36,543 nucleotides of DNA from Ilumatobacteraceae bacterium (GCA_023253435.1 JALRGJ010000001.1:1-36543), one strand, 5' to 3'. Shown: positions 2,493-28,482, numbered from the stretch's first letter. The notes: generated by a model from the letters alone, not told the origin. A program made the numbers and translations.

Positions 2493-3599
2493 TTACAGAA
2501 GTACTTTCAGAGCATCGTTGTCTACAACGGCGCGCAAAGACCGATTCAGCATGTCTCGTAACAGACTCTTTCCTCGGTCATTGTTCTCTTCAAAAGAAGG
2601 AAATGCTGTAACGGAGTACGTCACACAGAAGCAAATACCAATCAAATATTGGCGCATCATTTCTTTGCGCTCATATGTAACACCATGGTGATCGAGACGA
2701 CTGAAATATGTGTTCAAGAGTTCTTCATCGTGCCCGTGGCGAACATCTGGGTGAATTGATTGACTAATGAAATAGGCAACGTCGTACATTCCGCTACCTG
2801 TGCCAGTGATCTGGAAGTCAATGACCGCTGGATGATCGCCGTCAAACATGAGGTTGTCTGCTCGAAAATCACCATGACACAACGTTTTTGGCGACATCAT
2901 GTTTTGAAGCATCCACATGCACTTTTCCGACCATATTTCTCCAATTTTGGCAACTGAGTCTGGAATGAGATCGCCGGCATGCTGTTGTACTGCGGGCCAT
3001 GCATTGCTGAACATTGGTGGAAGCACAAATTCATAGGTGGGGTTAGCGACAGGTTTAAAGGTTTGCTCAATCTCTTCTAGTTTTGGGCTACCCCACCACA
3101 TGGCATGAAAATCTGCCAACACTTCGAGAAGTTTTTTAGCTTCTACCAAAGAGACACCCTCTAATTGATTCAAAGGACGCATGTAACCGATGTCTTCCAT
3201 TGCAATTGTGAAGTCGGTGTTGTCGCTAGCAATTGCTTGTCCGTAGCACTTTGCCGTTTTGAATGGTGCGTCTGGTGCACAGTCTCTGTAGAAGATCAAT
3301 TCACGAATATAAAATTCGAGTGCGTCGGCAGCGAATCGAAGATTGCCATCTGATGTGGGGTACTTCACAACAAATGATTTTGGCCCCGCTGCGGCGTTGG
3401 AATATGTGGGAGTAACACGTTGCAGCACACTCAGAATTCCCACACCTTCACCAATACGATCGGTGGTAAAACCAGTAACTGTGACGTCTTTTGGAAGTGC
3501 ACCACTGCCGTGCAATACACCTTGCACCCATGATGTAGTGATGTCTTCCTCAGAACGAATAAGTCCAAGTCCGGATGCGTTGAGATCCACAATTGCCAT
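2493..3599 (-). CDS. Phosphotransferase with a protein-kinase-like fold (APH / choline-kinase / EcKL-type)
   Basis: It has the catalytic loop HGDFRADNLMF and the metal-binding VIDFQ. I moved the start to the ATG at 3599 (MAIVDLNASG...) because GGGGGAA lies 7 nt upstream. The 90-codon extension in the track overlaps the sulfatase 3' end and does not look protein-like. Confidence 0.8.
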   Translation of the reverse strand: MAIVDLNASGLGLIRSEEDITTSWVQGVLHGSGALPKDVTVTGFTTDRIGEGVGILSVLQRVTPTYSNAAAGPKSFVVKYPTSDGNLRFAADALEFYIRELIFYRDCAPDAPFKTAKCYGQAIASDNTDFTIAMEDIGYMRPLNQLEGVSLVEAKKLLEVLADFHAMWWGSPKLEEIEQTFKPVANPTYEFVLPPMFSNAWPAVQQHAGDLIPDSVAKIGEIWSEKCMWMLQNMMSPKTLCHGDFRADNLMFDGDHPAVIDFQITGTGSGMYDVAYFISQSIHPDVRHGHDEELLNTYFSRLDHHGVTYERKEMMRQYLIGICFCVTYSVTAFPSFEENNDRGKSLLRDMLNRSLRAVVDNDALKVLL

Positions 3600-3648
3600 G
3601 ATTAGTTCCCCCTGTTTGATGCATTCCCCCGAATGCAGTGACGGAACT

Positions 3649-5931
3649 CTACTGCTGAGAGAGTGCTGCGCGCATCTCGCCTTCTGGGTCTCTATATGTG
3701 GGGCCAATCGCATCGATAGTGACCCGGTGTAGGACTCCTTCTGGGATGACTGCTTTTCCTGGCATATCTGGCGTGATAGCACCCATGCGCTGATAACCCA
3801 CCGCAAATGGATCAACGCCGTAGGAAATGGGCGTGGTGATGGGAATGACACCACTGCCAACGGGAACATCCCCGTAGTACAGGTTCATTTCACCACGGAA
3901 ACGACCTGTTGCATTAAAGACTGCTCTCAACACAACATCGCCATTTGGTATTTCTTCACTCGCGGAAATTGTTGTGGCCATTGCACCTAAGAAGTTGTGC
4001 ACGTAATGCAGGCGTCGCCCTTTGAGGTACATGGCATAACCACCAGCATGACCACCGTGACACACAATGACACCGTCACAGTTTTGATCAGCAGAAATGG
4101 ATACTTCAGCCGCAATATGGAACGATCGATTGCGCAAGTTAGGTGCAGTGGTTTCGGGAATTGAACCAATGCCAGCGTGAAATACATATCGGTCTCGGCG
4201 GAATCGTCTGTCGTAATAACGCCCAGGTTGGTTATTGAGCGGCAGAACTTGATTCTTGTCTGCCTCTATCCACCACAGTTTTTGGAGTTCTGCCAATTTC
4301 TCTGGGAATTTTGCAGATACCTCATGACACTCACTGAAATCTTCAGCAACGTGATACAACTCCCAAATGTCGTCTTCAAAACTACGCTTTGAAATTTCTT
4401 TGTCTTCGTAATTTGCCATCAGTGGTGGGTGGTACACAACTGCTTTCCAACCATCGTGATAGATGGCTCGAGAGCCCATCATTTCGTAATACTGAGTGAC
4501 ATGTTGCGAAGGCGCTTTTTTATCTTTTAGTGCGTACGCAAAACTTGTCCCTTCAATGGGATTTTGTTCAACACCTTTAATTATTTGAGGTGCCTCTACT
4601 CCGAGAAGTTCAAGAAGTGTTGGCTTGAGGTCAATGGCATGCACATATTGGTGTCGTGTTTCTCCAGGAGTACCAATTCCTTTTGGCCAGTGAATGATCA
4701 TTGGGTCGCACACGCCACCTTCGTGCGTGTCTCTCTTGAACCTTTTCAGCGGTGTGTTGCCTGCCCAAGCCCAGCCCCATGGATAGTGGTTGTTGCTGTG
4801 TTCAGTGCCGATGTCATCGAGGTGACGCAAGTTTTCCTCAAGGCTCTCAGGAACGAAGTTGAAGAAGTATTTCTCATTGTGGCTTCCGCTTGGTCCACCT
4901 TCGGCAGATGCGCCGTTGTCGCTCATGACAACAACAATGGTGTTATCGAGTTCACCCAAAGAATCCACAAATTGCAAGAGACGTCCCACTTGTTCATCTG
5001 TGTGAGTCATGAAACCAGCAAATGCCTCCATGAGCCTTGTGTACAAAAGCTTCTGATCATCGGATAATGAATCCCATGCCGGAACCCAACTTGGACGTTC
5101 AGACAACTCAGTACCTTCTGGCAAAAGACCAGATGCAAGTTGACGTGCGAATACTTCCTCACGCCATGCATCCCAACCCTTGTCAAACTTGCCTCTATAG
5201 GCATCGATATAACGCTTTGGTGCTTGGTGCGGAGCATGACATGCACCAGGTGCGTAATACATGAAGAAAGGCTTCACGGGTGAATACGCGCGCAAATCTT
5301 TGATGAATTGAATTGCTTTGTCTGTGAGATCTTCAGTGATGTGATATCCCTCAGCAGGTGTTGCAGGTGGATCCACTTGATGATTGTCATGAATGAGGTC
5401 TGGGTGGTACTGGTCTGTTTCGCCTGCAAGGAAACCGTAGAACCTGTCGAATCCTTTGCTCAGTGGCCAGTGATCTCGTGGTCCACCATCGTGGTTTTCA
5501 TAAGCGGGGGAGAGGTGCCATTTTCCTAACGCATAGTTTGCGTATCCATTCAAATTGAGAACTTCAGAAATGAAACCATTTTCATGAGGGATGATGGCGT
5601 CATAACCAGGGAAGCCTTGGGCAAATTCCACCACACACGCCATTCCTGACGCATGATGGTTGCGGCCAGTCATTAAACATGCACGTGTTGGCGAACACAG
5701 CGCTGTGGTGTGGTAGTTAGCAAAACGCAAACCATTGGCAGCCAGTTTGTCGAATGTTGGTGTGTTGAGATCGGATCCGTAACAACCAAATTGTGCATAA
5801 CCAACATCATCTAGGAGTACAACGATGATGTTGGGAGAGTTCTCAGCTGGGGTTTCTAATGGTGGCCACCAAGCAGTTGAGTCAGTGAAGTACTTCCCAA
5901 TTTCACCTTCGAAGTTCTTTTTGAGTCCCAT
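3649..5931 (-). CDS. Arylsulfatase (type I, formylglycine-dependent sulfatase family)
   Basis: It has the sulfatase signature CSPTRACLMTGR (C-x-P-x-R), the N-terminal metal site VVLLDDVGY, and GKWHLS. The start is set to the ATG at 5931 (MGLKKNFEG...), preceded by AAGGGAG. Confidence 0.9.
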   Translation of the reverse strand: MGLKKNFEGEIGKYFTDSTAWWPPLETPAENSPNIIVVLLDDVGYAQFGCYGSDLNTPTFDKLAANGLRFANYHTTALCSPTRACLMTGRNHHASGMACVVEFAQGFPGYDAIIPHENGFISEVLNLNGYANYALGKWHLSPAYENHDGGPRDHWPLSKGFDRFYGFLAGETDQYHPDLIHDNHQVDPPATPAEGYHITEDLTDKAIQFIKDLRAYSPVKPFFMYYAPGACHAPHQAPKRYIDAYRGKFDKGWDAWREEVFARQLASGLLPEGTELSERPSWVPAWDSLSDDQKLLYTRLMEAFAGFMTHTDEQVGRLLQFVDSLGELDNTIVVVMSDNGASAEGGPSGSHNEKYFFNFVPESLEENLRHLDDIGTEHSNNHYPWGWAWAGNTPLKRFKRDTHEGGVCDPMIIHWPKGIGTPGETRHQYVHAIDLKPTLLELLGVEAPQIIKGVEQNPIEGTSFAYALKDKKAPSQHVTQYYEMMGSRAIYHDGWKAVVYHPPLMANYEDKEISKRSFEDDIWELYHVAEDFSECHEVSAKFPEKLAELQKLWWIEADKNQVLPLNNQPGRYYDRRFRRDRYVFHAGIGSIPETTAPNLRNRSFHIAAEVSISADQNCDGVIVCHGGHAGGYAMYLKGRRLHYVHNFLGAMATTISASEEIPNGDVVLRAVFNATGRFRGEMNLYYGDVPVGSGVIPITTPISYGVDPFAVGYQRMGAITPDMPGKAVIPEGVLHRVTIDAIGPTYRDPEGEMRAALSQQ

Positions 5932-6035
5932 GATCGCTCCCTTATTCCACGGTGAAGAACAAACTACTTGCCAGAAAAGAGGGGGATTTTGAGTAGAGCC
6001 CATTTAGGGCTGTGTTGGTTAGTGAATGACGGTGG

Positions 6036-9636: not shown

Positions 9637-10506
9637 TTAACGTCTGCGAGGCCTGGCAGCGGGCATCCAATTTTCACCAGCTGTCTGATTGATGTGCTCA
9701 ACAAAACGTTCACCAACCGGTTGAATGAGAGAGACAAATTTTTCAGTGTTGTCTTTTCCAAATAGTTGCCAGGGAATCTGTGATAGCTGGTCGGTACGGT
9801 CCTCAAGTAACTGTCTGTAGGCAATACCTGCGTCGTTCACTACTCCATCCGTCACGAACCCTCTGTCAGCAAGAGATTTCAATCCTCTCTCAATTTCAGC
9901 ATCATCGGCGCCACGGCTTCTCGGAATCCATTCTTTCGGGTATCCCATCCATGCATCGTGCAACAGTCCTGCTTCAACTATTCCAATGTTGTCGTTCACC
10001 AATATTGCAAAATGTGTATCACCACGCCATTCTCGAATTGTGTTGATGGCGTTCCAAGATGAGAGAGTCGGGTGCATGGGACGCGGCCATGATTTGTGTG
10101 CTGCAAACAAAACACGGCCACCTTGTGGCAATTCGTCCACCACCTTCCATAAGTCGGTTGATAGTTCTCCCAAGGGTTCGATTATCTCGGGGGCTAAGTT
10201 CTGTAGACCCACCAGCACCGCAGCATCACGCGCTTCGGTCACTTCATGCCAATTTTTTATATGTGGAGCAGCGTGGTTCACAGCAAAATGAACGAACTCG
10301 CGTTTGATTGTGTAAAACGCCGCAGTTACCGCTTCTGCGCCAGCACTTGCTAGCGGTGCCCCCCTATTAGTGATGTAGTGACCTAGTCCATCGGGAACTC
10401 CCAGTTGAGAAAGATGGTGTTTTGCCAATGGGTCCCAAAAGATCCAACCAATTAATTGATGAGATGCAAGTGATGCATTTCGAGTGAGAGCCATCCAGTC
10501 AGTCAT
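9637..10506 (-). CDS. Conserved hypothetical protein, SCO6745-like (function unknown)
   Basis: 289 aa. The N-terminal pattern FWDP...GHYITNRGAPLASAGAEAVTAAFYTI matches my recollection of the actinobacterial SCO6745 family. There is no catalytic motif I can name. Confidence 0.55.
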   Translation of the reverse strand: MTDWMALTRNASLASHQLIGWIFWDPLAKHHLSQLGVPDGLGHYITNRGAPLASAGAEAVTAAFYTIKREFVHFAVNHAAPHIKNWHEVTEARDAAVLVGLQNLAPEIIEPLGELSTDLWKVVDELPQGGRVLFAAHKSWPRPMHPTLSSWNAINTIREWRGDTHFAILVNDNIGIVEAGLLHDAWMGYPKEWIPRSRGADDAEIERGLKSLADRGFVTDGVVNDAGIAYRQLLEDRTDQLSQIPWQLFGKDNTEKFVSLIQPVGERFVEHINQTAGENWMPAARPRRR

Positions 10507-17564: not shown

Positions 17565-18566
17565 ATGCGCCGCACAATCATTTCAATAATGTTGCTCGTT
17601 GCCATGGGAGTTGTTGGATTAGGAACAACTTCTCAGGCGGAATCCACATCAAGGGTCCAGAATCACGAGCAGATAGTCAAGTTTTGGACTAAGGCGCGGG
17701 TGGCTAAAGCCGTGTCGCGTGATTTCGTGCGAAATCCAACGACGGGGAAGTATTTGGAGAAAAACAGAAGATTTGATTCCGGATATGTGACCGGTGCTTC
17801 GTGGGAGTCTGGCGGTGAAGTTCAGGGAACCACAGGAAAAGTGTTGTTCTCCATGGGGAGTAGATATTACGTCTGCACAGCCAATGTTGTGGGTGATGGC
17901 GTAGCGGGTCGATCCATAATTTCAACTGCTGCTCACTGTGTCTTTGATGAGGTGAAGGGTGTATTCGCAGACAACTGGATGTTTGTCCCGGACTACGACA
18001 ATCAACCTGTAGCGCTGACGGGCGACGGATCTTTTTGTGATAGCACGCTCTATGGGTGTTGGACTGCTCAAGCAACAATTGTGTCTAACAATTATGCAAC
18101 TGCTGGTTCATTCAATAATCAAGCTGTGCTATCTGACTATGCATTTGTCGCAGTAGAACAAGGTGGGAAATCTCTTACTCACTTAGATGTGGAAGTAGGA
18201 AGTCAGCCCATTGCGTTTGCAGAAGAAGATTTTGAGATCAACATTTGGTCGTTTGGATATCCGGCAGCCAGAAAGTACAAGGGCGCAGATCTCACATACT
18301 GCAATGGTCTTTTGTACTTTGATGTTCGAATGGATTATCAGACCTATCAATTGGGTTGCAACATGACAGGTGGTGCCAGTGGCGGCCCCTGGTTCAAAGA
18401 TTTCTCAAACGAAGGCATAACTGCAGGAGAAGGAACGCAGTTTTCGGTCAATTCATATGGCTACAGCAACTCAAAGAATATGTATGGACCAATTTTTGGA
18501 ACAGAGACTGAATCTATGTTCAACACAGCGCAAACAATGACTGTAAACACGATCTTTGGAAGTTAG
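17565..18566 (+). CDS. Secreted trypsin-like (S1 family) serine peptidase
   Basis: It has a signal peptide (MRRTIISIMLLVAMGVVGLGTTSQA), the catalytic His motif STAAHC and the Ser motif GGASGGPWF. A strong SD (AAGAGGAGG) lies upstream. Confidence 0.85.
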   Translation: MRRTIISIMLLVAMGVVGLGTTSQAESTSRVQNHEQIVKFWTKARVAKAVSRDFVRNPTTGKYLEKNRRFDSGYVTGASWESGGEVQGTTGKVLFSMGSRYYVCTANVVGDGVAGRSIISTAAHCVFDEVKGVFADNWMFVPDYDNQPVALTGDGSFCDSTLYGCWTAQATIVSNNYATAGSFNNQAVLSDYAFVAVEQGGKSLTHLDVEVGSQPIAFAEEDFEINIWSFGYPAARKYKGADLTYCNGLLYFDVRMDYQTYQLGCNMTGGASGGPWFKDFSNEGITAGEGTQFSVNSYGYSNSKNMYGPIFGTETESMFNTAQTMTVNTIFGS

Positions 18567-18691: not shown

Positions 18692-19324
18692 ATGCGTTCG
18701 TGGTTGTTCAAAGTTGTTTTGATTTCTGTTGCAACTTTGGGAAGTGTGTTGACACATGGTTTTCAGGCAAATGCGCAATCGCTTTTTCTTCCTGTAAAAA
18801 CAGACGTTCATGGTGATGTTGGCAGATGGGATCCATGCAGTGCCATTGAGTGGAAAATCGGCGGCATTCGCAACAATAAGTATTTCGATGAACGAGTTCG
18901 TTCATCTGTGAATCAATTGGTTCAAGCAACTGGTTTGCAATTTCGTTTTGCTGGAATTGCTTCTGCAGAGGAAACCATCAATGCGCCACTGAATACGCTT
19001 GTGGTGTCTTTAGTTCCTCAACTCGCTAGTTCCATGGTGGGTGGCACCACACGCTTGACGTACTCCCAGGGAATTAATGAGTCGTTGGTAATTACTGGTG
19101 CAACAGTTCACATCAATGCACGCATTACAAAAGGGCATCTGAGAAAGCACCTCACACCAGTACTGCTGCATGAGCTCGGTCATGCCGTGGGGCTTGCTCA
19201 CGTTGATGATGCCAGCAACATTATGTATCCACGTGCGATTAAGCAGAAGAAGTACACCGTTGCAGATGTTGCCAATTTCTCAGTATTTGGTGCTGTGGCG
19301 GGTTGTCACCCAGTGAAGAATTAG
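18692..19324 (+). CDS. Secreted matrixin-like (M10) zinc metalloprotease
   Basis: It has a signal peptide (MRSWLFKVVLISVATLGSVLTHGFQANA), the HExxHxxGxxH motif (HELGHAVGLAH) and the Met-turn IMYP. There is no SD. TATCAT lies 7 nt upstream of the ATG, so the transcript may be leaderless. Confidence 0.85.
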   Translation: MRSWLFKVVLISVATLGSVLTHGFQANAQSLFLPVKTDVHGDVGRWDPCSAIEWKIGGIRNNKYFDERVRSSVNQLVQATGLQFRFAGIASAEETINAPLNTLVVSLVPQLASSMVGGTTRLTYSQGINESLVITGATVHINARITKGHLRKHLTPVLLHELGHAVGLAHVDDASNIMYPRAIKQKKYTVADVANFSVFGAVAGCHPVKN

Positions 19325-22641: not shown

Positions 22642-22671
22642 TTGACAGTCATTCTGCCATTTCTTTAGGCT
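22642..22671 (+). promoter_or_regulatory. Putative sigma-70-type promoter giving a leaderless transcript of the large secreted-protein gene
   Basis: TTGACA lies at 22642-22647, followed by an 18-bp spacer and TAGGCT (TANNNT) at 22666-22671. Exactly 6 nt then separate it from the A of the ATG at 22678. There is no SD upstream of that ATG. Confidence 0.35.
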
Positions 22672-22677
22672 GTGTGC

Positions 22678-25600
22678 ATGTCAGCCAATTCTGCGTCTTC
22701 CATCCCCGTCCGTCGACTTCTTCTTGGAGTTGTGTCCCTGATGGCCTCGATTGTGGTGGTGGGGGTAGCCCCTAGCGCTGTGTCTGCTCAGGAAGAGGGG
22801 AAAGGCGCTCCAGATTTTCGACCACCATCAACGGAGATGGTGACTACTCGACTTGAATTACCAGAAGGCAACATTGTTCATCCGGGAAAATCACGACCAG
22901 TGCATGCGGTGTTTCATAACTCCGGATTCGATGCGGCGAACAACTTTGGTGTTTATGTGAAATCCCCTAAGGGAACTCAGGTCACTACTACATCGAAAAA
23001 TTGGTCATGTTCAAAAGAGTGGACACTGAAGGGTTACAAGTGTTCATATGCAAAGTCGCTTGAGGGTGAATCAGATGTAGATGCAATCTTTACGATCAAG
23101 AGTTTCAAAGATACTCCTGATGGCAAAGAGCATGTTTCTGTAACTCCATTTACATCTTCAAAGAAAAAAATTGAATCTCAAACCACTCCTTACACGATTG
23201 TGGATCTCGGCGACGCAGTTTTGCTTCCCCATGTTCAACACTTTTCACAGAACAAATGGAAAAAATGGACTGACGGAAGTCATGTAAAGACATACGCACA
23301 TGAGAAATATCGCTATCGCATTGTTGTTAATAATGAAGGGCACGAGACCCTGAAGAAGGGTTCCATTATTAACCTGCGTCAAAGAATCGGAAAGCATGTT
23401 GATCTCAATTCAGTAAAGGTGGCATTGGGTTACGGAACATGCTCCACTAAAAACAAAACTGTTAGCTGTGCACTGCGAGCAAGTGAAGATATTAAGCCAG
23501 GTGCTCATCTCACTTCAGTAGATGTCACCGTGACTCCACGTTCTGAAGAGGAACGAGTAAAACTCGGACTCATCTCTGTGACAAATCCGAAGAGTAAAGC
23601 ACTGCATTCTGCAAACGTGAATTTGGAGTCAACTCACCGTCCACCTTCTGTCAACATTGAACTGCATCATCGAACCCATGGTGAAGTGGGAGGAATTGCT
23701 CAAGTTGACGTCAAGCTTGAGAACATTTCGAAAAACATCACACACAAATCGCTCACAATGACGGCAAAGATGCCAAAAGAGATTTCATTCCGCAAGGTAA
23801 CTGGAACTGGATGGTCGTGTCAGCAAGAAGCCCGCATTTTGGAATGTAGGTATCGAGGAACAGTGGCGCCTAAGGCAACGTCTAAGAAAGCTGATATTTA
23901 CTTCCATATCTCCAAGAATGCATCTCCGAATGCTGATGGCTATGAGATTGACTTCTTGTCTGAGCACGCGGTGCGTCGATTCAATATGCCAGTTTTGCCA
24001 GCAATTGAACTCAATGTAGAAGCAACACCAGCTTCACTCTCCACGCAGTCAGATGTGAGAAGCAATATGGTGCGTTTAGATGCCGATGAGACACTTGATA
24101 ACGGAAATGCAGTGGACTACCAGTGGGTTCAACGCTGTACAACGGCACAAGATGTTCGAAAGTTTGATGCTTGTCCAAGCGGATCACCAGCACCAAAGGC
24201 GACTCTCAAGCACATCTATCAACCGCGTGCCCATGCTCTTATTCCTGATGTTGAAAAGAAGACAACGTTTGTTTTTGAGCTTCGCGCTTCTACTGAATCT
24301 TCTTCTGTAGAAAAAGTGGTGAAAGTTAAGGCATCTCCTCAATCAGTTTCTGCGGCTGGGGTGAGCTCTTGGGCAGTGACCACACCATCTTGGATTTCTA
24401 ACGCTCTTGTTGATGCGCAAGTAACTATCACCAATCCTGTTTTATCAAAGGGAAATTTCACCGCTGATGCCACCTTGCCTCAATCCATCATGGATCGATT
24501 CAAAGTGCCAAAGGATCAGAAGTTCTTATTGACAGCAACAGAGGTGCAGGGCAAAGAGTGCATAGTTATTCACGCCGGTGATACTAAAACAACTATCAAC
24601 ATGTTCTCGTTCACTACGGCGAATATGAAAGCAAAGTCGTTTGATTACATCGTGGCGCCTGCTTCTTGTACCTATTCAGGTGATACTTACAAAGGTCTCG
24701 GGTTGAGAATCAATGGTGAGGTTTTCGGTAATACTTTGACTTTCTCTGGTCCGGTGACGTTGACTCCAGCGTTGAAAGTGGATGCAAAGGCAACTACTAC
24801 AAGTTTGAATGTTTCGTTACCTGCGGGATCATTCAAATTTAAAAACGTCATCATTGGACTTCTGGTAGATGACTCAGCGGGTACCGCCAAGTTATCGATG
24901 GGCGGTGCATTCAATGTTTTCGGACTTGATATTGATGTAGTCGGAAATATTTCTGTACCCACCGGTGTAGGCGGTGCAGCTTTGGATGGCATGCAGGTGT
25001 CATTGACTACATCTACTTCACGAACATTCAAATTTGATGATGTGTCACTCAGTGATATGAGTCTGACAATTGGTCTGCGGTACACGCCGATATTGGCGGC
25101 AGACAAGGGGTTGATCTCTGTAAATGGCACCGGAACATTGGAGTTCATGGGTACCTCAGTAAAGATCTCACAACTTGAGGTGGACTTTGCCAACGGCCAA
25201 ATTGTTTCCACTCTCATTAAGGTCAGCGCAAATATGAAGATTCCTTCTATGAAGGAAGCCAAGGCTGATCTCTCTGTGATGTGGATTGCTGCTCAACCAG
25301 CAAAGCCGCTGCCTTCTGATGCCCCCAAGAATTCACCGGCACCATTGCCAACCCCGGCGTCTTTATCCGTTGACTTGACGGCAATTTTTGTCACCGACTC
25401 CGGTTTCTCTATTGGAACTCCTGCAAACCCTGCTTACTTGCACTACCGCAGCGGTCAGTGCATCTCAATGGGTGGACAAGTGATCGTTCCGGGAATTCTC
25501 GATGCAACAGTTTCCGGTTACCTGGTGACAGGTTTGCCATGTATGCCTGCGGCAATCAAGATGGGAGATGTACCCATTGTTGGTAAGCGTTCCATCTTGG

Positions 25601-26679
25601 CTGAAGTGCCACTACCTGTGGCCCCAGGAGATTGGCGTTTCGATGCTTCAAACGTGAAAATCACATTGGGTGGCTTTACAGCAACCGGAAACTTCACCAT
25701 TGGAAAAATGTACGGAGTTCCTTACGGATCACTCGATGCCCTCATTAATCTCACACCCTCTGACACAAAGAACACCATTTATGTACAGGGAAGTGTTGAT
25801 CCGTTAACTGGTGTGAAGTTAAAGGGTGAAGCTGATCTTCAAGTTGCTGGCGTGATGGCTCACTTCACGATTGATGCCGCCATGACCACTACAGATCAAC
25901 ACATTGCAGCTTCAGCAGATCTGAAGTTGGGTGGTTCTAAGTTCAGGCTCTCAGGCTATTTCGGACTTGAAAAGTATCAAGGACGAATGGTGCCATCTCA
26001 GAGTTTCACTGCATCGGTACCCAACTTTGAGATTGACGGATTCAAACTGGGATCTGCAGAACTGTCTATGTCTCAAACTCCAACTTCTGCAAGTGTGAGC
26101 GCTGCCCTCAAAGTGAATCTGGGCCTACTCAAATTTGATGGTGCTGCGTCATTCCACACTGTGAAAGATGGCGTGGCCATAACGGTAGATGCAGATGGAG
26201 AAATTGAAGTAAGTGATAAATGGAAGGGCGATATGTCTTTCCACATTTCAACCTGTGGCAATGATGCATGTACTTCAATGGGACCTCTAAAGATCACCGC
26301 AGGAGGACATGCTGTCATTCAAGGAAAGAAATTCGATTTAGGAACCATCAAATTCAATTCCGGCGGACACTTCAAAGAAAAGATCCGCTACAGCGACGAA
26401 TCTTGTGATAAGTCTGGAACGAAGGGTGGAATTCAGTTTGAAGGTTGCTTCAAGTACTCCATCATTGCGGAGATTTCAGACACTGCCCCTTATGCGCTGC
26501 TAGATGCTGACGCATCTCTGCACGTAAAGAGCAGAAGTCGTTGCACCTTGTGTATTCCAAAGAGATGGTACGGCTGGGACAGCTGGGGCACATTGTCTGG
26601 TGGTATTGAAGTGCAGTTTGATCCATTCAAACTTCGTCTTCACGTAGGAAGTATCAACATAAGTTTCAGCGGTAAATAG
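22678..26679 (+). CDS. Large secreted protein (1333 aa). It has three DUF11/CARDB-like Ig-fold modules, one PKD-like module and a ~780-aa C-terminal region of unknown family.
   Basis: The signal peptide is MSANSASSIPVRRLLLGVVSLMASIVVVGVAPSAVSA/QE. Three modules carry N-x-G...W/G-x-C...C...hydrophobic-strand patterns: FHNSGFDAA...NWSCSKEWTLKGYKCSY, VNNEGHETL...GYGTCSTKNKTVSCAL and LENISKNIT...GWSCQQEARILECRY. The segment DYQWVQ...TTFVFELRAS is PKD-like. I see no LPXTG motif, no C-terminal TM segment and no RTX or YD repeats. Confidence 0.85.
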   Translation: MSANSASSIPVRRLLLGVVSLMASIVVVGVAPSAVSAQEEGKGAPDFRPPSTEMVTTRLELPEGNIVHPGKSRPVHAVFHNSGFDAANNFGVYVKSPKGTQVTTTSKNWSCSKEWTLKGYKCSYAKSLEGESDVDAIFTIKSFKDTPDGKEHVSVTPFTSSKKKIESQTTPYTIVDLGDAVLLPHVQHFSQNKWKKWTDGSHVKTYAHEKYRYRIVVNNEGHETLKKGSIINLRQRIGKHVDLNSVKVALGYGTCSTKNKTVSCALRASEDIKPGAHLTSVDVTVTPRSEEERVKLGLISVTNPKSKALHSANVNLESTHRPPSVNIELHHRTHGEVGGIAQVDVKLENISKNITHKSLTMTAKMPKEISFRKVTGTGWSCQQEARILECRYRGTVAPKATSKKADIYFHISKNASPNADGYEIDFLSEHAVRRFNMPVLPAIELNVEATPASLSTQSDVRSNMVRLDADETLDNGNAVDYQWVQRCTTAQDVRKFDACPSGSPAPKATLKHIYQPRAHALIPDVEKKTTFVFELRASTESSSVEKVVKVKASPQSVSAAGVSSWAVTTPSWISNALVDAQVTITNPVLSKGNFTADATLPQSIMDRFKVPKDQKFLLTATEVQGKECIVIHAGDTKTTINMFSFTTANMKAKSFDYIVAPASCTYSGDTYKGLGLRINGEVFGNTLTFSGPVTLTPALKVDAKATTTSLNVSLPAGSFKFKNVIIGLLVDDSAGTAKLSMGGAFNVFGLDIDVVGNISVPTGVGGAALDGMQVSLTTSTSRTFKFDDVSLSDMSLTIGLRYTPILAADKGLISVNGTGTLEFMGTSVKISQLEVDFANGQIVSTLIKVSANMKIPSMKEAKADLSVMWIAAQPAKPLPSDAPKNSPAPLPTPASLSVDLTAIFVTDSGFSIGTPANPAYLHYRSGQCISMGGQVIVPGILDATVSGYLVTGLPCMPAAIKMGDVPIVGKRSILAEVPLPVAPGDWRFDASNVKITLGGFTATGNFTIGKMYGVPYGSLDALINLTPSDTKNTIYVQGSVDPLTGVKLKGEADLQVAGVMAHFTIDAAMTTTDQHIAASADLKLGGSKFRLSGYFGLEKYQGRMVPSQSFTASVPNFEIDGFKLGSAELSMSQTPTSASVSAALKVNLGLLKFDGAASFHTVKDGVAITVDADGEIEVSDKWKGDMSFHISTCGNDACTSMGPLKITAGGHAVIQGKKFDLGTIKFNSGGHFKEKIRYSDESCDKSGTKGGIQFEGCFKYSIIAEISDTAPYALLDADASLHVKSRSRCTLCIPKRWYGWDSWGTLSGGIEVQFDPFKLRLHVGSINISFSGK

Positions 26680-26689
26680 CTGATTTTGG

Positions 26690-26710
26690 CCGTGGTGAAG
26701 TTCACCACGG
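26690..26710 (+). terminator. Stem-loop 11 nt after the large gene's stop codon (possible attenuator or terminator, no U-tract)
   Basis: CCGTGGTGAA-G-TTCACCACGG is a perfect 10+10 palindrome. A realistic hairpin would be ~8 bp with a 5-nt loop. It is not followed by a T-run, so intrinsic-terminator function is uncertain. Confidence 0.35.
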
Positions 26711-26728: not shown

Positions 26729-26764
26729 GGTTCTCCTTCGTATCGTGAGATATGAAGGAGAACC
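26729..26764 (+). promoter_or_regulatory. Shine-Dalgarno-sequestering hairpin in the heliorhodopsin leader
   Basis: GGTTCTCCTTC (26729-26739) is the exact reverse complement of GAAGGAGAACC (26754-26764), with a 14-nt loop. The 3' arm contains the AAGGAG SD (26755-26760), which sits 6 nt before the ATG at 26767. The 5' arm contains CTCCTT, an anti-SD mimic. Confidence 0.5.
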
Positions 26765-26766
26765 CC

Positions 26767-27516
26767 ATGGATGTCACATTTTCCAAACTGAAGCGACTTA
26801 ATTTGTGGGCCGCAGTCTTGCACTTAGTGCAAGGTGTTGCGGTTCTGGCTTTGGCAAATGATTTTGCGCTACCCGTCACAAGTTTTTTCTGGAATTCAGC
26901 ACCAACAAACACTCTAGATATCAATCGTATGGACAGAATGTTTGACGTGTCTATCGCATGGGCAGCTGCAATATTTCTTTTCTTGTCTGCACTGTTTCAT
27001 TTCATCGTTGCAACATCGGGAAGATCGCTTTACGAGCAGGAGATTTCACATCAACAGAACAGGTTCAGATGGGTGGAGTACTCAATTTCATCCACTGTGA
27101 TGATTATGAGCATCTGTCTGGTGTTTGGCATTTCAGATGTTGCTGGACTATTAGGAATCGCAGGAACAAATATTTCAATGATTTTGTTCGGGTGGATCAT
27201 GGAAGTTGTTAATAAGCCAGGAAATAAAGTGTGGTGGACCCCATTTTGGTTTGGCTGTATAGCAGGAATAATGCCGTGGCTTGGATTATTGGTGTACCTG
27301 TTTGGTCCTGGTGACGACATGCCAACATTTGTGTACGGAATTTTCATCACCATATTTATTTTCTTTAACTTGTTTGCTCTGAATCAGTACTTGCAATACA
27401 AACAAGTGGGGAAGTGGACAAGTTATGTTTATGGCGAACGGGTCTATCTCATCTTGAGTCTCACTGCAAAGAGTGCCCTTGCGTGGCAGCTTTACGGCAA
27501 CACGTTAAGTAACTAA
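26767..27516 (+). CDS. Heliorhodopsin (retinal-binding 7-TM protein)
   Basis: 249 aa with seven hydrophobic helices. The family-typical blocks are VLALANDFALP, FRWVEYSISS (counter-ion Glu, codon 27076-27078), ILFGW, PFWFGCIAGIMPW and ILSLTAKSALAWQ (Schiff-base Lys, codon 27469-27471). These match my recollection of heliorhodopsin 48C12. It lacks the RYxDW / DTx motifs of type-1 rhodopsins. The start at 26767 is preferred over 26752 because of the AAGGAG SD. Confidence 0.9.
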   Translation: MDVTFSKLKRLNLWAAVLHLVQGVAVLALANDFALPVTSFFWNSAPTNTLDINRMDRMFDVSIAWAAAIFLFLSALFHFIVATSGRSLYEQEISHQQNRFRWVEYSISSTVMIMSICLVFGISDVAGLLGIAGTNISMILFGWIMEVVNKPGNKVWWTPFWFGCIAGIMPWLGLLVYLFGPGDDMPTFVYGIFITIFIFFNLFALNQYLQYKQVGKWTSYVYGERVYLILSLTAKSALAWQLYGNTLSN

Positions 27517-27525
27517 AAGTTCTTT

Positions 27526-28482
27526 ATGAGACTTGGATCGTTTATTGATGGAGCAATGGATGCGCTTGTTGTACCTGGATTTTCGCGGGTTGGATATGCA
27601 ATTCGCTCCACACAATTCTCATCTCTTAGGTCTTATTCGCTCTCAGGTAAAACAGTGGTTGTTACGGGCCCTACCTCAGGCCTGGGGAATGCACTTGCGG
27701 AACAATTGGCCTCTATGAATGCGAACTTGGTATTAGTAGGAAGATCTGCAGAAAAACTCCGCATTACAATCGGGGCTCTGCATAAGCAGTTCCCTGCAGT
27801 CAACGTTGTCTCTGTAGTTGCTGACATGAGTGATTTACATTCGGTGCGAGAAGCTTCTCAAGAAATCTCAACACAGTGCCCTCAAATTCATGCGCTAGTG
27901 CATAACGCTGGAGCGTTGTTAAAGAACAGAGAGCAGACTGCTCAAAATCTCGAAACGACCATTGCATGTCATGTAGTTGGTCCACATCTAATGACTTCGC
28001 TTCTACTACCCGTTTTAAGAGCTTCACACGGCCGTGTCATCACGGTGTCATCTGGAGGAATGTACGCAGCAACTCTGACAGATATAAAACATGGAGAATC
28101 TCCTGAAATGTCGCCAGAGAAATACGATGGCACGAGGCAGTATGCAATTGCCAAGCGACTTCAAGTCACATTGAATGAAATGTGGGCCGAGCGTGAGCCA
28201 GGAATTGCATTTGCCGCTATGCATCCTGGATGGGCAGATACTCCCGGGGTCCAGGCTTCATTGCCAACGTTTCGACTATTGACTAAGCCGTTTCTCCGGT
28301 CTCCAGAGCAAGGAGCAGACACAATTGCCTGGTTGGTTGCAGATGACACGATTCTGAGGAAGAGCGGAAAATTTTGGTGTGATCGAGAAGTGCGTTCTAT
28401 TCACAAAACAGGCAAATCTAGAAAGTCTGATACTCGTGAGGCGCGCGAAGCACTCTGGGAATGGTGTCAAAAATACATCTGA
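27526..28482 (+). CDS. Short-chain dehydrogenase/reductase (SDR), DHRS12-like
   Basis: It has the cofactor motif VVVTGPTSGLGNALA, NAG (VHNAGA), the catalytic YxxxK (YAIAK) and the DHRS12-type C-terminal block HPGWADTPGV...LRSPEQGADTIAWL...SGKFWCDR. It starts 9 nt after the heliorhodopsin stop. Confidence 0.88.
   Translation: MRLGSFIDGAMDALVVPGFSRVGYAIRSTQFSSLRSYSLSGKTVVVTGPTSGLGNALAEQLASMNANLVLVGRSAEKLRITIGALHKQFPAVNVVSVVADMSDLHSVREASQEISTQCPQIHALVHNAGALLKNREQTAQNLETTIACHVVGPHLMTSLLLPVLRASHGRVITVSSGGMYAATLTDIKHGESPEMSPEKYDGTRQYAIAKRLQVTLNEMWAEREPGIAFAAMHPGWADTPGVQASLPTFRLLTKPFLRSPEQGADTIAWLVADDTILRKSGKFWCDREVRSIHKTGKSRKSDTREAREALWEWCQKYI

Follow-up and report, generated by a model that had tools for sequence, protein, structure and literature searches.

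The stretch of DNA analysed here (the window, 36,543 nucleotides from an Ilumatobacteraceae bacterium, GCA_023253435.1 JALRGJ010000001.1:1-36543) carries on its plus strand, at 22678-26679, a gene for a 1333-amino-acid exported protein that lies directly upstream of a heliorhodopsin gene. We read the product, with modest confidence, as a stand-alone, disulfide-stabilised protein on the surface of a freshwater, Ilumatobacteraceae-like member of the Acidimicrobiia; it would have the architecture of a fibrillar adhesin and end in a new, non-enzymatic terminal module. A large surface protein on an Ig-like stalk is of a known kind; what is new is the C-terminal module. The gene and the parts of its product are as follows, in window coordinates and with the evidence used to delimit them.

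22678..26679, plus strand: gene for the 1333-residue exported protein (open reading frame list; full-length orthologs; ATG matching the start codons at loci L004 and L003)
22678..22791, plus strand: predicted signal peptide, residues 1-38 (RR in the n-region, strongly hydrophobic h-region, VSA/Q cleavage site)
22837..23199, plus strand: predicted Ig-like domain 1, DUF11/CLIPPER-like, residues 54-174 (AlphaFold2, Foldseek; invariant W109, C111 and C122)
23221..23634, plus strand: predicted Ig-like domain 2, DUF11/CLIPPER homolog, residues 182-319 (hhalign; disulfide C255-C264; orthologs match PF01345)
23650..23997, plus strand: predicted Ig-like domain 3, DUF11-like, residues 325-440 (AlphaFold2; invariant columns; W379, C381, C390)
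24019..24339, plus strand: predicted Ig-like domain 4, PKD-like by motif and fold only, residues 448-554 (AlphaFold2; disulfide C487-C499)
24454..26676, plus strand: C-terminal all-beta module, residues 593-1333, undescribed domain family (alignments of distant relatives, AlphaFold2)
24625..25287, plus strand: module lobe A, predicted beta-meander, residues 650-870 (DSSP of the model; part-homologous to lobe B; amphipathic strands)
25291..25359, plus strand: Pro-rich insert, residues 872-894 (length and sequence vary among orthologs)
25363..25632, plus strand: most conserved core, residues 896-985 (GFSIGT..NPA.L, disulfide C928-C955, VIVPGILDATVSG, loop toward GDWRFD)
25633..26676, plus strand: module lobe B, predicted beta-meander, residues 986-1333 (disulfides C1193-C1198, C1243-C1257 and C1289-C1292)

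The open reading frame runs uninterrupted from 22672 or 22678 to 26679, with 1333 residues counted from the ATG and an alternative GTG at 22672. The gene is real rather than a chance reading frame, because at least 16 full-length orthologs (1314-1387 amino acids, 41-72% identity) align with it from end to end, and its ATG at 22678 is aligned with the starts of the orthologs at L004 and L003. Many samples of freshwater metagenomes contain the protein, in clusters of 80, 47, 30 and 27 member sequences.

Relatives of the module were sought with a HMMER scan of residues 558-1333 over 1.84 billion representatives, which returned 42 proteins at E<=1e-3, forming approximately 42 clusters at 50% identity. 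The distant matches share 24-29% identity over about 700 residues (E 1e-25 to 1e-47) and extend from approximately residue 593 to the last residues. The module is terminal in 32 of 32 aligned sequences (tail length 0), behind a preceding part of 579-2275 residues. Most of the clusters are metagenomic sequences, and every family member with a taxon name belongs to the Actinomycetota; the single match in a reference genome is a metagenome-assembled genome (MAG) of Ilumatobacteraceae from Lake Mendota. Giant relatives of 2200-3300 amino acids, annotated as 'PKD domain-containing protein', occur in MAGs of Thermoleophilia/Miltoncostaeaceae, with stalks made of DUF11 and K319L-like PKD domains or, in P0081, of fn3. 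A word-indexed profile search with the module alignment recovered close orthologs only, and pattern scans for the family found one locus in genomes and three in metagenomes. A further candidate relative, P0044, consists of LVIVD/Kelch repeats and was treated as a spurious low-complexity match.

Pfam and NCBIfam gave no match to the 1333-residue protein even at E<=1, and left the module unmatched in the whole protein, in its C-terminal 776 residues, in 16 orthologs and in 17 distant relatives. Profile searches of PDB sequences with module alignments returned nothing apart from one match at E 1.4. In Foldseek searches against the PDB the predicted module found only generic beta-meanders (TM-score, the template modelling score, 0.13-0.28) and no global match; the targets included Deinococcus SlpA, LptD, ushers, VDAC and the ApoB100 beta-belt, with a root mean square deviation above 24 Å for the top-ranked large ones, and BFVD offered nothing better. 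Judged from these sequence and model comparisons, the module represents a new domain family, and the libraries searched contain no neighbour of it in sequence or in fold. The initial annotation, made from the sequence alone, had called the C-terminal region unassignable, and some 740 residues are still without a described family after the hidden Markov model, profile-versus-PDB and fold searches.

The module was modelled with AlphaFold2 as a fragment of residues 558-1333 on a 32-sequence alignment, at a mean predicted local distance difference test score (pLDDT) of 80.8 and a predicted template modelling score (pTM) of 0.54. Of the 45 strands in the model, about 40 fall inside the module; they are mostly 10-17 residues long and are joined by turns of mostly 2-5 residues. 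Low confidence is confined to residues 558-565, which are the start of the fragment and lie outside the module, and to one loop at approximately residues 963-969, which falls within the conserved core of residues 896-985. The strands are strictly amphipathic, with one face made up to 64% of L/V/A/I/F and containing less than 3% Tyr plus Trp, and the opposite face carrying T/S/K/D/N/E; if the model is correct, the apolar face must be buried. An internal duplication relates residues ~685-868 to ~1032-1191 (hhalign probability 94.5%, E 8e-8). The Pro-rich stretch, which is gapped or variable in the ortholog alignment and has the lowest identity apart from the signal peptide (~36%), is on this alignment a variable insert and does not mark a domain boundary.

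Several ways of burying the apolar face were weighed. Oligomerisation would do so if the module were an S-layer-like lattice or self-associating envelope subunit whose Ig-like domains decorate the surface, which we think unlikely. The large one-sided hydrophobic surface and the recurrence in freshwater metagenomes fit such a subunit, and the best Foldseek E-values belong to the Deinococcus S-layer protein SlpA; the TM-score to SlpA is just 0.15, however, the matched SlpA structures are beta-barrels from a diderm, and the Pfam scan shows no SLH or other lattice motif. The highest Foldseek probability (0.99-1.00) and the highest TM-score (0.25-0.28) were instead obtained with the ApoB100 beta-belt. 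Together with the strictly amphipathic strands, their tight turns and a divergent TetR-family gene adjoining the gene, this could point to a module that binds lipid or other hydrophobic material outside the cell (particles, membranes or small molecules), resembling the ApoB100 beta-belt or a beta-taco, with a hydrophobic ligand inducing expression by way of TetR. We hold this to be rather improbable: the TM-scores are far under fold level and any long beta-meander fits these targets, Pfam gives no LLTP, AsmA or TamB signal, and the conserved neighbours include no lipid-metabolism genes.

The strictly C-terminal position of the module, behind an array of Ig-like domains that could pass for a passenger, would also suit a membrane beta-barrel, a pore or an autotransporter-like translocator of the N-terminal part, and the top Foldseek matches include the barrels of LptD, an usher, SlpA, VDAC and Tom40. 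Several points speak against this reading, to which we assign very little weight. The family members with a taxon name are Actinomycetota, and the genome carries a heliorhodopsin, a protein reported from monoderms only (PMC8612252). TM-scores do not exceed 0.19 against large barrels (LptD, SlpA, ushers) or 0.26 against small ones (VDAC, Tom40, OmpU). With so little Tyr and Trp the apolar face would offer no aromatic girdle, the sequences end in ...SFSGK, ...FTI or ...LCT and have no C-terminal aromatic beta-signal, five disulfides are predicted in the module, and the strands are bounded by tight turns on either side.

Conservation within the module is concentrated in the core of residues 896-985, where mean pairwise identity is 66% compared with 44-57% in other segments; the core motifs are common to the giant relatives, and the loop of the core leads to GDWRFD at residues 984-989. 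Pairwise comparisons give 79, 71 and 51% identity for the module where the stalk gives 63, 56 and 46%. Across the 32 sequences the invariant module positions are Gly, Cys, Phe and Trp together with one Ala, and the near-invariant ones are almost all Gly, Cys or aromatic; the sole near-invariant polar residue other than Cys is the Asp of GDW/F (Asp428 in the numbering of the fragment). Because the conserved positions are nearly all Gly, Cys or aromatic, the module looks from its sequence like a structural or binding scaffold and not an enzyme. A secreted enzyme (for example a polysaccharide-degrading one) or a toxin of new fold has the large size and secretion of the protein and the secreted peptidase genes nearby in its favour. 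We give it scant credence, since beyond Asp428 no constellation of conserved His, Ser, Glu or a second Asp exists in the 32 sequences, and there are no Pfam or NCBIfam matches.

The N-terminus reads MSANSASSIPVRR-LLLGVVSLMASIVVVGV-APSAVSA/QE, with the slash marking the predicted cleavage site, and has a charged n-region and an AXA site. It is the sole segment of the protein with a Kyte-Doolittle hydropathy above 1.6 (2.4 for the h-region). AXA-type N-terminal signal peptides are present in all relatives. The RR pair is found here and in several orthologs and is missing in P0003 (LSRV) and P0010 (QRIRL). Export of the Sec type is favoured because of the strongly hydrophobic h-region and the nine predicted disulfide pairs. 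The 18 cysteines fall into nine neighbouring pairs (111/122, 255/264, 381/390, 487/499, 628/664, 928/955, 1193/1198, 1243/1257 and 1289/1292), of which the first eight are invariant across 10 orthologs and three lie within the last 140 residues; five of the predicted disulfides, four of them invariant, belong to the module. By the extracellular criterion of PMC8286594 the AXA signal peptide and the eight invariant Cys pairs predict an extracellular protein.

Much of the initial description of the protein holds. The peptides it cited (VRRLLLG at residues 11-17, AVSA/QE at residues 34-39, the Pro-rich stretch and four strand-turn-strand peptides) lie where it had placed them, and its clustered Cys near the C-terminus correspond to the three pairs just mentioned. 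A regular-expression check of the protein agrees with it that LPXTG, RTX, YD and lipobox motifs are missing; the absence of a C-terminal transmembrane (TM) segment is likewise borne out, the only hydrophobic segment being the signal peptide. Its picture of a large exported beta-rich protein is supported by the signal peptide and by the AlphaFold2 models.

Between the signal peptide and the module, AlphaFold2 predicts four consecutive beta-sandwiches (residues ~54-174, ~182-319, ~325-440 and ~448-554) in a model of residues 38-565 built on a 16-sequence alignment (pLDDT 87.8). Foldseek matched this model to Ig-like arrays at E ~1e-13, among them integrin alpha legs, alpha-2-macroglobulin MG domains and the streptococcal AgI/II adhesin. 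These four Ig-like sandwiches in series correspond to the tandem rigid domains that serve as the stalk criterion in PMC8286594, and DUF11, since renamed CLIPPER, typically forms the stalks of fibrillar adhesins (PMC12617251). At the level of homology the assignment differs between domains. PF01345 (DUF11) matches five of the 16 orthologs (best E 3e-5) and NPCBM_assoc four of the 16, and the 1333-residue protein itself is below the PF01345 gathering score, with no match at E<=1. When the profile of domain 2 is compared with the part of the giant relative P0020 that Pfam calls DUF11, hhalign gives a probability of 99.3% (E 4e-20). Domains 1 and 3 have a common N.G...W.C...C pattern and a weak profile link to each other (hhalign probability 53%). 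In domain 4 the motif LDAD..NG..Y.W.Q resembles PKD as judged by eye; homology to PKD was rejected, hhalign against the PKD repeats of P0020 and P0021 giving 1-2%, and neither the protein nor its 16 orthologs have a Pfam match to PKD or K319L-like PKD (PF22352). The three DUF11/CARDB-like modules and one PKD-like module of the initial annotation are thus upheld as folds, but as homologs for domain 2 alone. Domains 1-3 each contain a conserved disulfide, and in domains 1, 2 and 3 the catalytic isopeptide Asp is replaced, by eye, by Lys, Gln and Lys.

Upstream of the gene lies a closely spaced divergent regulator, with the following features.

22642..22671, plus strand: promoter-like TTGACA-N18-TAGGCT, with 6 nt between its end and the ATG, conserved at L004 and L003
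22051..22623, minus strand: divergent TetR-family regulator (PF00440), 54 nt from the ATG

Three lineages keep TTGACA-N18-TAG(G/A)(C/G)T-N6-ATG (window 22642-22680; L004 ~4750-4787; L003 ~9965-10003). This pattern fits an actinobacterial -10 element of the form TANNNT and a transcript that begins, leaderless, at the ATG. A strict sigma-70 scan did not pick up TTGACA-N18-TAGGCT. The arrangement suggests a leaderless or near-leaderless mRNA, and the conserved TTGACA-N18-TAGGCT-N6-ATG is the reason for preferring the start at ATG 22678 over GTG 22672. A TetR ortholog occupies the same position at L009, L004, L014 and L003 and is the one neighbour kept down to 46% protein identity. A closely spaced divergent neighbour is a common target of TetR regulators.

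From these elements we propose the following course of events. The gene would probably have a leaderless promoter to itself, with the divergent TetR-family protein acting as repressor of its expression. After Sec export and cleavage of the signal peptide, the four Ig-like domains would form a short stalk fused to the ~740-residue module, a duplicated meander of long amphipathic beta-hairpins. The module would be the functional terminal part of the protein, since it is always C-terminal, is better conserved and is kept while the type and length of the stalk vary between actinomycetotal classes. It would most likely fasten the protein into or onto the envelope of the monoderm cell, at the place where a Gram-positive anchor normally sits. 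The heliorhodopsin would have no part.

Gram-positive fibrillar adhesins carry their anchors at the C-terminus and their binding domains at the N-terminus, and nearly half of these proteins are without a known anchor (PMC8286594). Because of this placement and this gap, and because the module is more conserved and the stalks are variable, a role in envelope attachment or assembly is tentatively the most likely of its functions. A distal ligand-binding head would come second to the anchor, and we regard it as doubtful. In its most specific form, the proposal is that the module is a new C-terminal device for attachment to, or assembly on, the envelope of monoderm Actinomycetota, a device whose amphipathic beta-sheet embeds in or self-assembles on the envelope and displays variable Ig-like stalks; so stated it is speculative, and we think it improbable as a whole.

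A number of observations weigh against the reading as a fibrillar-adhesin-type surface protein. Some orthologs have Tat-like RR motifs, and the surface localisation is a prediction. Four stalk domains are short for a fibrillar adhesin. Pfam, NCBIfam and motif searches found no known anchor (LPXTG, SLH, LysM, GW, PG_binding, TM helix), no adhesive domain and no wall-binding motif, and the choice between anchor and head is made from the logic of position and conservation alone. The pTM of the module model is only 0.54. The likely regulation by the TetR protein is read from the gene arrangement, and a search of the 54 nt between the two genes revealed no operator palindrome common to the three lineages. 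What is left is a rare, undescribed family, with a confident model and no structural neighbour, that ends large surface proteins in two poorly studied and mostly uncultured classes of Actinomycetota. The new terminal module is a candidate for the gap left by roughly half of the fibrillar-adhesin-like proteins, those without a known anchor.

The relation to heliorhodopsin was assessed by surveying 16 related loci for context and searching them by tblastn with the heliorhodopsin as query. The relevant features of the window are these.

26690..26710, plus strand: perfect inverted repeat CCGTGGTGAA-G-TTCACCACGG (10+10 bp), 11 nt past the stop codon, with no T-run
26752..27516, plus strand: heliorhodopsin gene (PF18761, E 9e-94), a neighbour only, outside the system

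In the window the gene order is LigB, FMN_dh, TetR (minus strand), the gene for the 1333-residue protein, heliorhodopsin, short-chain dehydrogenase/reductase (SDR) and nitroreductase. L009, the sole locus in which tblastn found a heliorhodopsin, has the same order, and its neighbouring proteins are 99.5-100% identical to those of the window, so that it evidently represents the same strain; at the other 15 of the 16 loci heliorhodopsin is missing. At L004 (71% ortholog) the flanks are the same (LigB, FMN_dh, TetR, SDR), the orthologous SDR (69%) begins 12 nt past the stop codon, and the contig has no heliorhodopsin. L014 (63% ortholog) keeps TetR and has the end of a convergent open reading frame downstream, and L003 (46% ortholog) keeps LigB and TetR on a contig that stops at the gene. 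L005, L008, L015, L016 and the P0055 contig form one clade, in which PMSR lies upstream and a Tad/Flp pilus operon follows in convergent orientation. Elsewhere the downstream neighbour is a PG_binding_1 gene (L001 and L002; P0010, 43%), a Big_13 protein (L006; P0008), RecBCD (L010; P0013, with a sulfotransferase and Acyl_transf_3 upstream) or, behind the giant relatives at L011-L013, housekeeping genes. Because tblastn finds heliorhodopsin at L009 alone, the adjacency is, on the genomes compared, strain-specific, and no functional link is supported. No footprint of a heliorhodopsin insertion or deletion was found at the junction.

Functional coupling of the two genes, with the protein as a light-regulated surface effector or partner of the heliorhodopsin, is largely refuted and keeps hardly any probability. 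The genes are on the same strand with a gap of 72-87 nt in the window and at L009, but the adjacency is missing at every other related locus, including that of the syntenic 71% ortholog, and the gap itself holds the hairpin and heliorhodopsin's own Shine-Dalgarno sequence. The hairpin at 26690-26710, which a terminator scan requiring a T-run did not call, may be either a terminator that lacks the T-run or a palindrome to which a protein binds. Two in-frame ATGs are available to the heliorhodopsin, at 26752 and 26767, of which only the latter has a Shine-Dalgarno sequence (AAGGAG); the call at L009 uses 26767 (249 amino acids). Heliorhodopsin is also closer to the downstream SDR (27526-28482), 9 nt past its stop codon. 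An operon partner of heliorhodopsin has been taken to be a gene on the same strand, less than 10 bp away and recurrent (PMC8612252), and recurrent tight adjacency is lacking for the gene of the 1333-residue protein; on those terms the SDR, and not the 1333-residue protein, would be the partner. The initial annotation had taken the position next to a light receptor as grounds for a novel function, and that argument is not supported, the adjacency being absent at 15 of 16 loci, L004 included. It had also named two findings that would together count against its proposal: of these, the lack of conserved heliorhodopsin linkage is now established by the survey, but a match of the C-terminal region to a known family is not found. 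The 1333-residue protein offers no handle on heliorhodopsin function.

Neighbouring genes often encode secreted or envelope proteins, and no paralogy was detected between the 1333-residue protein and the unannotated secreted ones. A linkage to the Tad pilus was considered and not used, as it is restricted to one clade and convergent in orientation; the window has no Tad genes. The pilus operons lie at 7308-9348 in L005, 6146-9913 in L008 and 4244-10143 in L015, as well as on the P0055 contig, are complete, and encode a CpaF-like ATPase, TadB/C, a 64-residue Flp, TadE-like pseudopilins and a family-less protein of 409-416 residues. L008 (GCA_947477035.1) also has, at 1088-1885, directly upstream of the ortholog, a gene for a secreted 265-residue collagen-repeat protein (PF01391). 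Upstream in the window, 17565-18566 and 18692-19324 encode small secreted proteins with signal peptides, one with a weak trypsin-like match (E 2.5e-4) and the other with a zinc-protease motif of the matrixin type (Peptidase_M10); at L004, too, an M10 gene lies upstream. At 2493-3869 and 3649-6003, both on the minus strand, an EcKL/APH-type kinase and a sulfatase have longest open reading frames that share ~220 nt, and the kinase probably begins downstream of the first codon of its longest frame; a sulfatase is also near the ortholog at L001 and L010. The window (1-36543, ~47% GC) is otherwise a catabolic and redox region, with genes for a P450, an FAA hydrolase, a glyoxalase, an FAD monooxygenase, the LigB dioxygenase, the FMN dehydrogenase, the nitroreductase, an amidohydrolase, two luciferase-like monooxygenases, at least four TetR regulators, a P-type ATPase and an ABC-2 exporter.

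Among known systems, the fibrillar adhesins that have stalks of the DUF11/CLIPPER type (PF01345; Monzon et al. 2021, PMC8286594; Costa et al. 2025, PMC12617251) are alike in the signal peptide, the tandem Ig-like DUF11 and PKD-like stalk, the disulfides of the stalk domains, the single non-stalk terminal module and the Gram-positive lineage. The 1333-residue protein differs from them in having four stalk domains only, none of which passes the Pfam threshold, in a stalk without the catalytic isopeptide Asp (by eye), and in having no recognised adhesive domain or anchor; its non-stalk module is C-terminal, comprises 740 residues and belongs to an undescribed family. The giant proteins of Thermoleophilia/Miltoncostaeaceae (MGB1802685.1, P0020 cluster) are true homologs, with the C-terminal module in common and a homolog of domain 2 among their DUF11 domains, whereas they have many more stalk domains, come from another class of Actinomycetota, are acidic and are without the Pro-rich insert. 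The ApoB100 beta-belt, the Deinococcus SlpA barrel, LptD and the chaperone-usher barrels resemble the module model in their long antiparallel strands and hairpins, a likeness that is local and not at the level of the fold; they act in a membrane or lipoprotein-particle context, and the module has no aromatic girdle. To the LPXTG signal, the autotransporter beta-domain and the C-terminal domain (CTD) of the type IX secretion system (T9SS) the module is unrelated in sequence and in structure; its size greatly exceeds that of the LPXTG or CTD signals, and its anchoring role is a proposal. Like all three, it is always last and is conserved while the passenger or stalk varies, and if the proposal is true its role would parallel that of the autotransporter beta-domain, in bacteria without an outer membrane.

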